Origin: an uncultured Candidatus Saccharibacteria bacterium
Lineage (GTDB): Bacteria > Patescibacteriota > Saccharimonadia > Saccharimonadales > CAYUUR01
DNA length: 64,000 nt
NCBI GenBank assembly: GCA_964448075.1
Contig: CAYUUR010000001.1
Span: 247,371-311,370 of the forward strand
Direction of reading: 5' to 3'
In this document: positions 3,731 through 52,689 of the stretch, in pieces
How the letters are laid out: each line of letters opens with the position of its first letter
How positions within the stretch are numbered: the first letter of the stretch is position 1
Program-made: the position numbers and the translations under genes
Notes under the pieces: generated by a model
Database searches by the model: none
What the model was told of the DNA's origin: nothing
The model's input: only the letters and a program-made list of their open reading frames with translations

Positions 3731-6389
<2,659 letters not shown>

Positions 6390-43833: not shown

Positions 43834-43978
43834 AAAAAAAGAATCCTTTGTCTTGTTAGTTAGTACTTACTCGTGGCGACTGTCGCTAATGAAATCGAGT
43901 AATATACTTCTCTAAAAGACCCGGATTCATCAATAACAATATGTTGATTCTACTACAACAAAGGCTGATTGTCAACGC

Positions 43979-44239
43979 TTATGTCAGCTTAGAGACTATG
44001 ATCCAGATGAGTACGGCAAGCCCAAGCGCCCGTCTAAAGACGTTCACACCAGAGAACAACTCAAGCCATCCCCACGTAAATAACGCGCCGAAAGCAATCA
44101 AAGCAGCAATAAAGTTAAGCTGACCATACGGCAATATCTTTGCCAGTATGCTCGCAAGCAGCCCTACAACAAGAGGCAAGTTTGGTGTCTGAAACAACAC
44201 AAAATTTTGCTTAGGCTGAGTGGGTGGCTTGGTCTCCAT
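43979..44239 (-). CDS. Small membrane protein
   Basis: 86 aa with three hydrophobic helices. No family recognised. Confidence 0.4.
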   Translation of the reverse strand: METKPPTQPKQNFVLFQTPNLPLVVGLLASILAKILPYGQLNFIAALIAFGALFTWGWLELFSGVNVFRRALGLAVLIWIIVSKLT

Positions 44240-44253
44240 GTGGGCAGTATACG

Positions 44254-46106: not shown

Positions 46107-46137
46107 AAAAAAACTCGAACTGAGTTCAAGTTTTTTT
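46107..46137. terminator. Bidirectional intrinsic terminator (A7-hairpin-T7) shared by ccdA and ssrA
   Basis: The sequence is AAAAAAACTCGAACTGAGTTCAAGTTTTTTT. The stem is CTCGAAC/GTTCAAG with one wobble. It abuts the tmRNA 3' CCA end. Confidence 0.6.
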
Positions 46138-46517
46138 GGTGGAGCTGCCGGAGAACCGCCCTCCGGGTCCGCAAGTTTATCTTTGTTAGTCGTCTACAGG
46201 CATAGTCTGTTTAGTGTCTTAGGCGCATGTCTGAAAGCAGACAAAATAACACACGCAGCAGCTCGTAAATCTTAAGAACAATTACGAGTCATCACTGTTC
46301 AGCAACCCTGGAAAATAGCGCATCGTATAGCTACCAAGGTATCGCTATAGATACGGCTGTCTAACTAATTAGGCAGCGAGTGCTAGACGATTGCCGAGAA
46401 CTCGGTCAACCGCGTCGCTAATAGAAGTTTTTGCATCTATTGTGATTGTCTATACGCTGACAAGCGACCTGCTGATCTAACTGATAAAGTCCTACGTCGA
46501 GCTTAAAATTCAGCCCC
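46137..46517 (-). ncRNA. ssrA: tmRNA (SsrA)
   Basis: On the minus strand the 5' end is GGGGCTGAATTTTAAGCTCGACGTAGG and the 3' end is GCGGACCCGGAGGGCGGTTCTCCGGCAGCTCCACCA. The acceptor stem GGGGCUG/CAGCUCC and a terminal CCA are present. An internal tag frame (46434-46369) follows AAUAGAU. It reads GCA AAA ACT ... CTA GCA CTC GCT GCC TAA, giving AKTSISDAVDRVLGNRLALAA*. Confidence 0.9.
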
Positions 46518-50440: not shown

Positions 50441-50863
50441 TTAGACGTCTAGTAGATTCAGACCAACTTCTGCAACCCTGCGCCGCACAAGACTTGCAGA
50501 TACAGTATTAATTCTAAGTTCACAGGTGCCACCAACCGCAAGATCTTTAACATGACCACCGACACCGCTCATATCAGATCTACTAAAGCTACCGTGTAAA
50601 TGTATGGCCGGCACCCCTGCATCATCTATGGCAATATTGCCCTGCAGACTGGTTATTTCCATGACTTCATCAAACCTTTTCCAATGATATTCTTGTTTTT
50701 CTAGATCATAGAAACCCAGTTCTGCCCAAGCTGCCCCACCTAAACCGTCCACCCAAGCTGCGGTGATTTGTTCATGATCAATCAGATCATTCAGCTGCTC
50801 CATCAAAAGCTCGCCTTTTTTTAATCGAACAATGTACTGCGTATCATCTTTGAGGTATTTCAT
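50441..50863 (-). CDS. PPC/DUF296 domain protein
   Basis: I prefer the ATG at 50863 (MKYLKDD...). IVRLKKGE, ITSLQGNI and HLHGSFSRSDMSGVGGHV resemble the DUF296 (PPC) fold. A -10 TACAAT (50875-70) lies 6 nt before the ATG. Confidence 0.65.
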   Translation of the reverse strand: MKYLKDDTQYIVRLKKGELLMEQLNDLIDHEQITAAWVDGLGGAAWAELGFYDLEKQEYHWKRFDEVMEITSLQGNIAIDDAGVPAIHLHGSFSRSDMSGVGGHVKDLAVGGTCELRINTVSASLVRRRVAEVGLNLLDV

Positions 50864-50899
50864 GGCCTCATTGTACAGCAAATTATTGGTCCCATCTTC

Positions 50900-51440
50900 T
50901 TACCAGCTAAAGCTGGCAGCCATGTTACTTTTGGTCCGCCAAAAGTAACCAAAAGCTCCCGGCAGAACAATAACAGGCCTGATCTGTTGATATTGCTCAC
51001 AAAGGCACGGCCAACTTGTCCGCTGAAGCAGACTTCAAACACGACCGTGCCATTTTGTTGTGAAACAATACAACATCTCAATCGCGTTATTGTTCTCTAT
51101 GCCGGCTTCCACGCCCGGACGCGAACAGCACTGGTGTTATTCTTCAGCTACAGGCGTCCGGGCGTAAGATCACGCTCTGAAACACCGGTGGCTGAGAGTG
51201 CTGGATGGTCGAGTCCAGCTGCAGCCCTGTTTTGGTTCCGTAACTAGAGAGTTAACCAAAACCGCCCTGCAAGGGCGATGCTGCAGCGCGACCAGCCAGT
51301 GCTTTCAGCATCCGTGTGGCTTCAGCCGCGTGTCTGTTTTTGGCCTACCTTTTTGCTGACACAAAAAGGTAGGTGGCTCGCTCGGCAAGGCCGAGCAGAC
51401 ATATTGAGTTATTGGTTGTTGATTGGAAAAGAGTAAGTTG
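50900..51440. ncRNA. Candidate large structured ncRNA, family unknown, strand undetermined
   Basis: There is no credible ORF. At least 12 helices are present, including perfect stems 50924-34/50939-49, 50964-74/51086-96, 51111-22/51154-65 and 51344-55/51362-73. They are organised as three multi-branch domains. Confidence 0.5.
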
Positions 51441-51447
51441 GTGGACG

Positions 51448-52689
51448 CTACCACCACCCTTGAATTTGCCAAGCCTGATAAGCACCTGACCAGCTACCAT
51501 AGCGTCCATTTGCATAGCCAGTAAAGAATTGGATCTGACAGATTGCATCTGTCTGCCAAGCAGGACACGCCGCAACAAGTTTACTACCCGGGCACGCCTG
51601 ACCAAGGCCCAGACAACCGCCGGCATTCTGGGCGTTAAGCCTCCAACCTGATTCGTGCGCCAGTATAAAGTCCGCGGCAAAATGCTGCGAAGCGGGCACG
51701 CCAGCTGCTGCCAGAATCTCAGCCTTATTCCCACCTATCGCAACTGTCGGGACTTTTGTGCCGCGCAGGATTACGCGTGTTTCTGGCTTAACTGAAACTA
51801 CTTTCTGTAGAATCTTCTTTTTATATACCTTGCCGTTACGTAACTCGAGTTCGTAGGTAACAAGTCGCTCGCCAGGCTTGCCTGGTTCCTTTACTTGATC
51901 AGTGCCGATGGCTAAGGTGCTGTCATTAATAATCTTTTCTGGGGCAGCAATCTTTTCTTTTTTGGTTTCGATTTTTTTGCCGGTACGAATTACAAATACC
52001 TGAGCGTTTGGTGTAATTGGTGTGTCAGGTGCAGGCGAAACTTGATCGCCTGTTTGGGCAACAATATTCTTTTCTTTGAGTAATGCACCGACGGTTTTGA
52101 CATGTGTGCGTACGGGTATTTTAGTACCGTACAAATTTACATAGGTTAGTGTTGCTCGGTCCACGACAACCCGCTCATCAAGCCCATCCTCAAACAAATC
52201 CTCTGGCGGGGTAAGCGTTGCTCGGTCTTCAGGATAAAGTTCCAGGCCCGCTTGTTTAGCAACGTCCTTTGGTTCTTGATGGGCGCTTACCGTAGAAAGC
52301 TCTTCGTTGTTTTCTGTGTCGACTACGGTTATCGTACGAGCTTTGTAGACATTAACTGTAAAGTTCTCACTGTCGATGGGCGTACTCACGGCGGGTTCAA
52401 TAATGTCTTGTTCGCTCGTTTTAATCCCAGAGGCATCTAAAAGTTCCTGAACATTCTGTGCGCGGGTAGGCACCGTCTGTAGCTCGCCATCTACATAGAG
52501 CTGTACAACGCGTTTGTCGCTGGGGCCAATTGTCTGAGAACCCATTAAAACAAATGCGACGGCGGTAACAAAAAACAAACCCAAAAAAGTAACGACCGGT
52601 ACTACGAATGGATGCTTCGCCAAAGGGCGCTTGGTAGTTTCCGGCTGGTGGTTGCCAGACGATTTAGTATCAGTTGGTGGTTTTTTCAT
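51448..52689 (-). CDS. DUF348-repeat + G5 domain cell-wall protein with C-terminal transglycosylase-like domain (RpfB/YabE-like)
   Basis: 413 aa with an N-terminal TM. DUF348-type repeats are present (VQLYVDGELQTVPTRAQNVQELL). The G5 domain reads EPGKPGERLVTYELELRNGKV...ETRVILRGTK. The Cys-rich C-terminal domain is ILAHESGWRLNAQNAGGCLGLGQ. Confidence 0.8.
   Translation of the reverse strand: MKKPPTDTKSSGNHQPETTKRPLAKHPFVVPVVTFLGLFFVTAVAFVLMGSQTIGPSDKRVVQLYVDGELQTVPTRAQNVQELLDASGIKTSEQDIIEPAVSTPIDSENFTVNVYKARTITVVDTENNEELSTVSAHQEPKDVAKQAGLELYPEDRATLTPPEDLFEDGLDERVVVDRATLTYVNLYGTKIPVRTHVKTVGALLKEKNIVAQTGDQVSPAPDTPITPNAQVFVIRTGKKIETKKEKIAAPEKIINDSTLAIGTDQVKEPGKPGERLVTYELELRNGKVYKKKILQKVVSVKPETRVILRGTKVPTVAIGGNKAEILAAAGVPASQHFAADFILAHESGWRLNAQNAGGCLGLGQACPGSKLVAACPAWQTDAICQIQFFTGYANGRYGSWSGAYQAWQIQGWW

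Follow-up and report, generated by a model that had tools for sequence, protein, structure and literature searches.

The 64,000-nt stretch of Saccharibacteria DNA analyzed here, referred to throughout as the window, contains a 584-nt gap between a G5/DUF348 gene (51448–52689, minus strand) and a PPC/DUF296 gene (50441–50863, minus strand), and a conserved element, a little shorter than the gap itself, occupies positions 50895–51411 of it. No other non-coding stretch of the window comes close to this element in structure, and we regard it as a novel family among large structured non-coding elements. Comparison of its copies suggests a more specific reading, the best available although our judgement on it is evenly balanced, namely that the element is one copy of an undescribed, narrowly distributed family of large (∼520–600 nt) structured non-coding RNA genes acting in trans in a small clade of Saccharibacteria. 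The original prediction, made from the window alone, had described the gap as highly structured, and the folding energies bear this out. Relative to dinucleotide shuffles, the z-score of the gap is −8.8 for the plus strand and −10.5 for the minus strand; none of 100 shuffles is as stable. In a scan of all window gaps of at least 120 nt the element gap is unique, with z ∼−10 on both strands, whereas all other gaps range from −0.4 to −4.0, the gap containing the transfer-messenger RNA (tmRNA) gene having a value of −2.7.

The known copies comprise three that are full-length (window, L001, and L062) and two that are partial (L061 and L055). L001 (JBPOIH01) occupies the same locus as the window copy, next to a DUF296 gene that is 84% identical, and L055 (JAHZTO01) is a fragment at that locus on a contig cut short at the element. 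L061 and L062 were found by a protein search with the open reading frame (ORF) of L001, which retrieved the mis-called "proteins" P0121 and P0122 annotated on these two copies; they lie on two contigs of one other metagenome-assembled genome (MAG), GCA_018001115.1. L062 is a full-length divergent copy (3744–4316, minus strand) between pth and dprA, whereas L061 consists of the first ∼300 nt only (3954–4247, minus strand) and abuts the end of nrdR. The presence of copies on two contigs of a single MAG indicates that the family is multi-copy and occurs in unrelated contexts, as interspersed repeats do.

Proteins related to PPC/DUF296 are nearly all annotated as Saccharibacteria. In 31 fetched Saccharibacteria loci DUF296 is preceded on the same strand by a G5 homologue, in 18 of them at an intergenic distance of 0–40 nt. 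In L056 and L057 this distance is 16 nt and the gene order, uvrD-NUDIX-G5-DUF296-rsmA-marR, is the same as in the window. A spacer of ∼570 nt with element sequence is found at the G5-DUF296 junction in the window and L001 only, with the fragment in L055. Judged from these gene neighborhoods, the element is a lineage-specific insertion into an otherwise tight and conserved gene pair.

As is typical of structured non-coding RNAs in general, the element combines compensatory substitutions with conservation above the neutral level (85–98% identity within the element, 45–62% in the spacers). From an alignment of the full-length copies, three in number, RNAalifold derives 178 predicted pairs in the minus orientation and 173 in the plus orientation, and in each orientation 37 pairs are changed on both sides and still paired. 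For the 178 pairs this number compares with 12.9 ± 2.8 in shuffles, none of 500 of which reaches 37, and with 5–12 in slid controls; the proportion of cells paired is 92%, compared with 85.0 ± 0.9% in shuffles and ∼40% in slid controls. Substitutions in homologues that broke the proposed helices would have spoken against the original prediction, and most of these helices are instead kept, many of them by compensation.

All complementary segments listed in that prediction are present in the window, and most of the corresponding helices are kept among the copies, many with double substitutions: 50903-07/50912-16, 50924-34/50939-49, the base of the rod 50964-74/51086-96, 51111-22/51154-65, 51218-25/51280-87, 51230-37/51254-61, 51263-68/51272-77, 51344-55/51362-73, and 51381-86/51390-95. 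The proposed helices 51201-05/51214-18 and 51331-36/51396-401 are not kept in the divergent copy L062, and a long-range helix pairing 51289–51332 with 51171–51211 takes their place. A large, multi-branched, non-coding structure survives the comparison. A better description of its layout than three consecutive domains is, in minus-strand order, a pair of 5′ hairpins followed by a junction domain of 162 nt, a hairpin of 65 nt, a variable rod of ∼150–200 nt, and a pair of 3′ hairpins (Table 1).

Table 1. Features of the element and of the adjoining spacers in window coordinates. A dot marks features listed without an assigned strand.
Feature	Position	Strand	Description
Whole conserved element	50895..51411	.	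∼517 nt; limits from profile nhmmer and alignment with L001, L062, and L061
Spacer, G5 stop codon to element	51412..51447	.	Poorly conserved, 62% identity to L001; contains CTTTTCCAATC, common to L062
26-codon ORF	51322..51402	-	ATG at conserved 5′ edge to TGA within invariant GGCTGAAGCC; open and of the same length in four copies
H1 hairpin	51376..51400	.	5′ hairpin; three pairs changed on both sides, pairing kept
H2 hairpin	51344..51373	.	12–13-bp stem; four pairs with double changes
Linker	51333..51343	.	A-rich on minus strand, U-rich on plus strand; kept in all copies (alignment)
Domain C, junction domain	51171..51332	.	162 nt; closed by irregular bulged long-range helix H3; encloses H4–H7
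H3, bulged long-range helix	51312-51332 with 51171-51188	.	Invariant; both strands 100% identical in four copies
H4	51289-51309 with 51191-51211	.	Five pairs changed on both sides
H5	51280-87/51218-25	.	Six of eight pairs changed on both sides
H6	51263-77	.	Inside domain C
H7	51229-62	.	Inside domain C; loop conserved
H8 hairpin	51106..51170	.	65 nt; invariant internal/loop sequence GTAGCTGAAGAATA at 51138-51151 (minus strand)
Rod E, variable domain	50959..51105	.	Long irregular rod with internal hairpin; helices 10–17, 13 pairs with double changes
H10 hairpin	50924..50949	.	3′ hairpin, 11 bp perfect; different hairpin at this position in L062 and L055
H11 hairpin	50902..50917	.	3′ hairpin GCCAGCTTTAGCTGG; kept in window, L001, and L062; absent in L055
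Spacer and DUF296 extended -10 box	50864..50894	-	Box TGCTGTACAAT at 50880-50870; spacer identity 45% (window vs L001)

The ends of the element read CTCA(T)nnATGTCTGC ... GCTGGTAAGAAG. H1 exists as two alleles, CTCGGCCTTGCCGAG in the window and L061 and CCAAGCrwAGCTTGG in L001 and L062, which are related by the compensated change of CTCGGC/GCCGAG to CCAAGC/GCTTGG, and H2 likewise has one type in the window and L001 and another in L062 and L061. In H5 the pairing of GCTGCAGC with GCTGCAGC in the window is replaced by that of ACCAAAAG with CTTTTGGT in L062. H3 behaves differently from these helices in that its strands, CACGCGGCTGAAGCCACACGG and CCGGTGTTTCAGAGCGTG (as RNA, CACGCGGCUGAAGCCACACGG paired with CCGGUGUUUCAGAGCGUG), are invariant even between the window and L062, which share only 64% identity over the remainder of domain C. 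Rod E is ∼50 nt longer in L062 and is absent from the partial copy L061. The conserved 16-nt loop of H7 contains CU(C/U)UAG(C/U)UAC; at the position corresponding to 51240–51246 (minus strand) it reads UAGUUA in the window and forms the palindrome UAGCUA in three of the four copies (L001, L061, and L062). The same loop is complementary to the invariant GUAGCU of H8, and from these sequences a kissing dimer or a pseudoknot could form.

Identity between the window and L001 is 89.7% over H1–H8, 85.2% over rod E, and 90.2% over H10–H11, as compared with 76–85% for five flanking protein genes and 62% and 45% for the two adjoining spacers. Domain C of the window is 98% identical to that of L001 and 96% identical to that of L061, and invariant 21–22-mers are identical between copies that are only 64% identical elsewhere in this domain. 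Because the element is better conserved than both the flanking genes and the spacers, it appears to be either under purifying selection or continually homogenized from other copies.

The individual modules group the copies in different ways, as in mosaic elements in which alternative modules are differently combined. H1 of the window is identical to that of L061 (100%) while L001 goes with L062 (93%); H2 of the window goes with L001 (94%) while those of L062 and L061 are identical (100%); domain C unites the window, L001, and L061 against L062; and in H8 the L001 version is 92% identical to L062, compared with only 75% to the window. L055, a third lineage, carries an L062-type 3′ module at the same locus as the window. 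These conflicting groupings, a four-gamete pattern, require recombination between variants both within and between genomes, and the hairpins are discrete alleles exchanged as cassettes between copies. Within the 64-kb window modules scattered in high copy, such as mosaic elements may show, are not present: blastn-short, profile nhmmer, and a covariance model run with filters off detect no second copy and no stray module.

Because hairpins are exchanged as cassettes, a mobile or selfish element has to be taken seriously as a rival to the RNA-gene reading. This main rival takes the element to be selfish and mobile but non-autonomous, with a folded strand, RNA or single-stranded DNA, that mobility machinery recognizes, such that the structure is kept for transposition rather than for the host; examples would be a palindrome-associated element of the IS200/IS605 type with a guide-RNA-like scaffold, or an ORF-less retroelement mobilized in trans. 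Its presence or absence at a conserved gene junction, the two copies in unrelated contexts (one of them partial) in one MAG, the mosaicism of cassettes across genomes and the distinct 3′ module that L055 carries at the window copy's locus, the lack of strand asymmetry between G·U and A·C mismatches described below, an 8-bp direct repeat ACCAATAA around the window copy, and unrelated hairpin-rich inserts at the same junction in L039 (z −3.1) and L028 (z −4.3) are all in keeping with it. We nevertheless consider this explanation unlikely. No significant terminal inverted repeats are detected, L001 lacks the direct repeat, none of the flanks seen encodes a transposase, TnpB/IscB, or reverse transcriptase, the window holds one copy and no stray modules in its 64 kb, and neither the HEARO nor the group II intron models of Rfam match at E ≤ 10. 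Moreover, the L001 copy at the same locus is better conserved than coding genes while the spacers have decayed, which argues for host-level selection or continual gene conversion. A classic MITE (miniature transposable element with inverted repeats) was rejected as a candidate, the best inverted match between the 5′ and 3′ ends being no better than in shuffles for the window (131/300) and weak for L001 (21/300).

The RNA-gene reading itself has to contend with a number of observations. Multi-copy, insertion-like, and mosaic behavior fits a selfish element equally well. The covariation derives from only three full-length and two partial sequences, and the compensatory changes are inherited as whole-hairpin alleles, so that independent events are fewer than the pair counts. 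The family is also very rare: exact matches of invariant 21–25-mers are absent from the JGI metagenomes and IMG/VR, and a profile of the mis-called ORFs searched against 1.84 billion representative proteins retrieves only P0121, P0122, and a spurious P0123. A one-strand RNA is expected to carry more G·U than A·C among its imperfect pairs, whereas the two are equally common here, symmetric mismatches within the helices totaling 28 G·U, 25 A·C, and 28 other. The minimum free energy (MFE) favors the minus strand in the window and L062 and the plus strand in L001 and L061, and scanning of either strand reveals no convincing promoter or terminator. Even with the homologues included, neither the mismatch totals nor the MFE preference, which varies from copy to copy, singles out one strand, in agreement with the original prediction.

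Over the union of pairs predicted on either strand, the window has 16 G·U and 7 A·C, L001 has 13 and 9, and L062 has 14 and 19. G·U pairs of the minus strand are carried by H1, H3, the base of the window's H8, and rod E; H4 has three to four plus-strand G·U pairs, some of which are exchanged for other wobbles in L062, and the middle of H8 has a plus-strand G·U pair in three of the four copies. The sole terminator-like site common to all copies is a weak plus-strand hairpin of the invariant 21-mer followed by the U-rich linker, and the minus-strand 3′ end has no U-tract terminator. In three independent contexts the element, read as the window's minus strand, begins 26–38 nt past the stop codon of a co-oriented gene, these genes being G5, pth, and a 530-aa glycosyltransferase-like gene. 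Since no promoter is visible and the start lies at this short distance from a co-oriented stop codon in all three contexts, we slightly prefer the minus strand, with the RNA possibly produced by read-through from the co-oriented upstream gene.

If the element is an RNA gene, then its folded product would work in trans, serving as a scaffold for protein binding or else assembling with itself. The functional center would reside in the parts that never vary, namely H3 (CACGCGGCUGAAGCCACACGG/CCGGUGUUUCAGAGCGUG), the H8 sequence GUAGCUGAAGAAUA, and the H7 loop, with H1, H2, H5, H10, and rod E serving as replaceable struts. Equal G·U and A·C counts, long-range covarying helices, mosaicism, and insertion behavior are also compatible with a mobile nucleic acid under structural selection on both strands and are unexplained by a plain one-strand housekeeping RNA. 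Quite improbable, in our estimation, is the corresponding proposal of a novel type of mobile self-folding nucleic acid selected on both strands, for instance an integrated parasite of Saccharibacteria resembling an RNA or single-stranded DNA replicon or a retroelement, which would propagate and vary through swaps of hairpin cassettes between copies and genomes.

The constant position behind co-oriented genes raises another alternative, in which the element is a cis-acting part of an operon transcript, a hairpin block in a 3′ untranslated or intercistronic region similar to REP/BIME or BOX sequences that would protect the upstream mRNA from decay, end or insulate transcription, or guide processing. 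The distance of 26–38 nt downstream of a co-oriented gene, the lack of a detected promoter of its own, the mosaic composition, and the retention by DUF296 of its own promoter immediately downstream all speak for such a block. Its long-range covarying helices and 20-nt invariant tracts, however, go far beyond what an exonuclease block needs, the minus-strand 3′ end lacks a U-tract terminator, the upstream genes (those for a G5 protein, Pth, and a glycosyltransferase-like protein) are unrelated, and most Saccharibacteria lack the element at this junction. A cis-acting role is improbable on this balance.

The original prediction had also held that the gap is probably not the leader of DUF296, that gene having a −10 box only 6 nt from its ATG. 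The extended −10 box TGCTGTACAAT ends 6 nt before the ATG and is kept in L001 (∼3985–3995), L051 (∼1340–1352), and L055 (∼112–122), and thus in relatives both with and without the element, in agreement with that claim. This close and conserved spacing suggests that the PPC/DUF296 mRNA is leaderless or near-leaderless. A riboswitch or DUF296 5′ leader was rejected as an identity for the element, since other copies precede unrelated sequence, DUF296 has its own −10 box, and most relatives lack the element.

The element is non-coding. As originally described, the ORFs of the gap are short and free of motifs: none matches Pfam, and 1-nt indels that differ from copy to copy disrupt their frames. 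The longest frame, on the plus strand, spans 127 aa in L001 and 124 aa in L062 (P0122) and is split by different 1-nt indels in the window and L061. A small protein encoded either by the 26-codon ORF (51402–51322, minus strand) or by a decayed form of this 124–127-aa plus-strand ORF is hardly credible. Four of four copies do preserve the 26-codon frame with its ATG and TGA, and annotators called ORFs on L061 (P0121) and L062 (P0122). Against this, radical amino-acid replacements track the hairpin alleles, no ribosome-binding site (Shine-Dalgarno sequence) is visible, the long ORF is frameshifted in the window and L061, there is no Pfam match, and no relatives beyond the element copies are found in 1.84 billion proteins. 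The 26-codon ORF is probably incidental. P0123, a 1106-aa tandem-repeat "protein" of which 13 stretches matched the spurious-ORF profile, is a repeat-driven false positive, and a degenerate peptide-pattern scan of IMG/VR produced no match.

The claim that the element belongs to no known family is upheld by Rfam 15. At gathering scores the only match in the whole window is the tmRNA at 46137–46517, and L001, L061, and L062 have none. Permissive cmscan at E ≤ 10 over 50700–51600 and L062 3300–4400 returns only noise (miRNA, CRISPR-DR, and DicF fragments), with no match to the ROOL, GOLLD, OLE, raiA, or HEARO covariance models. It is very improbable that the element belongs to a known RNA class, catalytic or housekeeping (a group I or II intron, RNase P, 6S, or SRP), and is so divergent that these models miss it. 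The size and multi-domain fold are compatible with it, and divergent sequences of Patescibacteria might be expected to escape models built mostly from other phyla. However, the permissive search gives noise only, and GGAAAGUCC, a GUGYG 5′ end, and a domain-V-like hairpin are all lacking. The intergenic position leaves nothing to splice, which argues against an intron, and an essential single-copy RNA cannot be reconciled with a multi-copy family of which one copy is truncated and which most relatives lack at this locus.

Individual candidates fare no better. RNase P was rejected given the absence of GGAAAGUCC and of any RF00010 or RF00011 match, in line with the original observation that its signatures are missing, and given the two copies, one partial, in one MAG. 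For group I and II introns no match to RF00028, RF00029, or the D1–D4 models appears at E ≤ 10, the element lies between complete genes, and GUGYG...AY ends are not found. Two CUGAAG motifs recall hammerhead-like CUGANGA cores; they occur without other core elements and without an Rfam match.

A covariance model of domain C, R1, scores 153–197 bits on the four copies only; neither the window, searched with filters off, nor a set of 62 loci yields another. Searches of phage and plasmid collections with blastn at the "distant" setting return no similarity, and a weak nhmmer match at L020 1935–2054 was discarded because it consists of terminator hairpins after uvrD. Short-read assemblies of the same and sister lineages break at perfect hairpins such as H10 (L059 1–30; L060 1–25; L055 1–125), and the L055 contig begins with an artificial 120-nt fold-back centered on one hairpin. 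Such breaks imply that the element is probably under-represented in metagenome assemblies.

Among described systems, ROOL (∼580 nt), OLE (∼600 nt), GOLLD (∼800 nt), and raiA resemble the element in size range, in a many-helix multi-junction fold, in conserved tracts amid covarying helices, in lacking coding capacity, and in occurring sometimes in more than one copy or in a mobile context. The element differs from them in having no covariance-model match, in its Saccharibacteria host, and in its very narrow distribution, cassette hairpins, and lack of a G·U-over-A·C bias. ORF-less group II introns of class C are likewise multi-domain and ∼600 nt long and insert just downstream of genes or terminators in the direction of transcription, but the element has no Rfam group II match, no GUGYG 5′ end, and no domain V/VI. 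HEARO/IscB omega RNA and TnpB reRNA are also large, covarying structured RNAs on small mobile insertions that can lack a protein gene; unlike these, the element shows no HEARO model match, no IscB, TnpB, or TnpA in the flanks seen, and no conserved flanking target motif. BIMEs of E. coli, NIMEs/Correia elements of Neisseria, pneumococcal BOX elements, and MITEs share with it a non-coding nature, a location just after genes, recombined alternative hairpin modules, and presence or absence in relatives. Those elements are short modules with copy numbers in the tens to hundreds that carry terminal inverted repeats or REP units and lack a long-range tertiary-type fold, whereas the present element has one copy in 64 kb, no terminal inverted repeats, long-range covarying helices, and 20-nt invariant tracts. 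Self-association is described for ROOL, GOLLD, and OLE (10.1101/2024.12.08.627333), and the palindromic UAGCUA loop could mediate a comparable self-association, which for this element is pure conjecture.

No description of a large non-coding RNA or MITE of such a kind in Saccharibacteria or the candidate phyla radiation was found in the literature, nor was any large folded RNA reported from Patescibacteria found in Rfam 15 or the literature searched. Few large bacterial RNAs with an intricate fold and no known function have, to our knowledge, been described (OLE, GOLLD, ROOL, raiA, and HEARO). Saccharibacteria are ultra-small symbionts whose compact genomes have little spare DNA, so that an element of ∼520 nt maintained under selection within a tight gene cluster likely does something. 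Its behavior, with several copies, cassette hairpins, an invariant 20-bp bulged helix, and no wobble strand bias, may show how new structured RNAs arise and spread, and the 162-nt domain closed by the invariant helix offers a defined object for mapping transcripts, pulling down proteins, and solving structures. If the element is selfish DNA, then it would be an unusual mobile element having an RNA-like fold without inverted ends.

Several further features were observed around the element and its copies. The 8-bp direct repeat, TTATTGGT on the plus strand, occurs at 50883–50890 and 51409–51416, just outside both element ends, in the window copy only and not at the same locus in L001; it may reflect chance or an old target duplication. 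The G5 stop codon is placed in a hairpin loop, TGGTGG-TAGCGT-CCACCA (51439–51456, minus strand), with a T-rich tail behind it; sequence beyond the gene supplies one half of the stem, and the hairpin is absent from L056, a relative without the element. The hairpin-rich non-coding inserts found at the G5-DUF296 junction of other Saccharibacteria, unrelated to the element, extend over L028 3815–4000 (186 nt), with repeated TGTAAC/GTTACA and TGTCAC/GTGACA motifs, and L039 3733–4000 (268 nt), and the junction may be a recurrent landing site. Adjoining the L062 copy, a moderately structured non-coding stretch of ∼240 nt (L062 3490–3745; z −2.9 and −4.2) without an Rfam match ends in a clear terminator on the plus strand of that locus, GAGCCTCCGG...CCGGAGGCTC followed by TTTTTT, and may be a separate small RNA gene.

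Elsewhere in the window, the tmRNA, which the original prediction had noted as lying outside this gap, is placed by Rfam on the minus strand and is full-length at 68.5 bits; ARAGORN finds no tRNA or tmRNA gene in the 64 kb. The second most structured gap, 43834–44253 (plus-strand z −4.0), contains an 86-aa hydrophobic ORF at 43979–44239 (minus strand) and, for that reason, is probably the site of a small membrane-protein gene rather than of an RNA.

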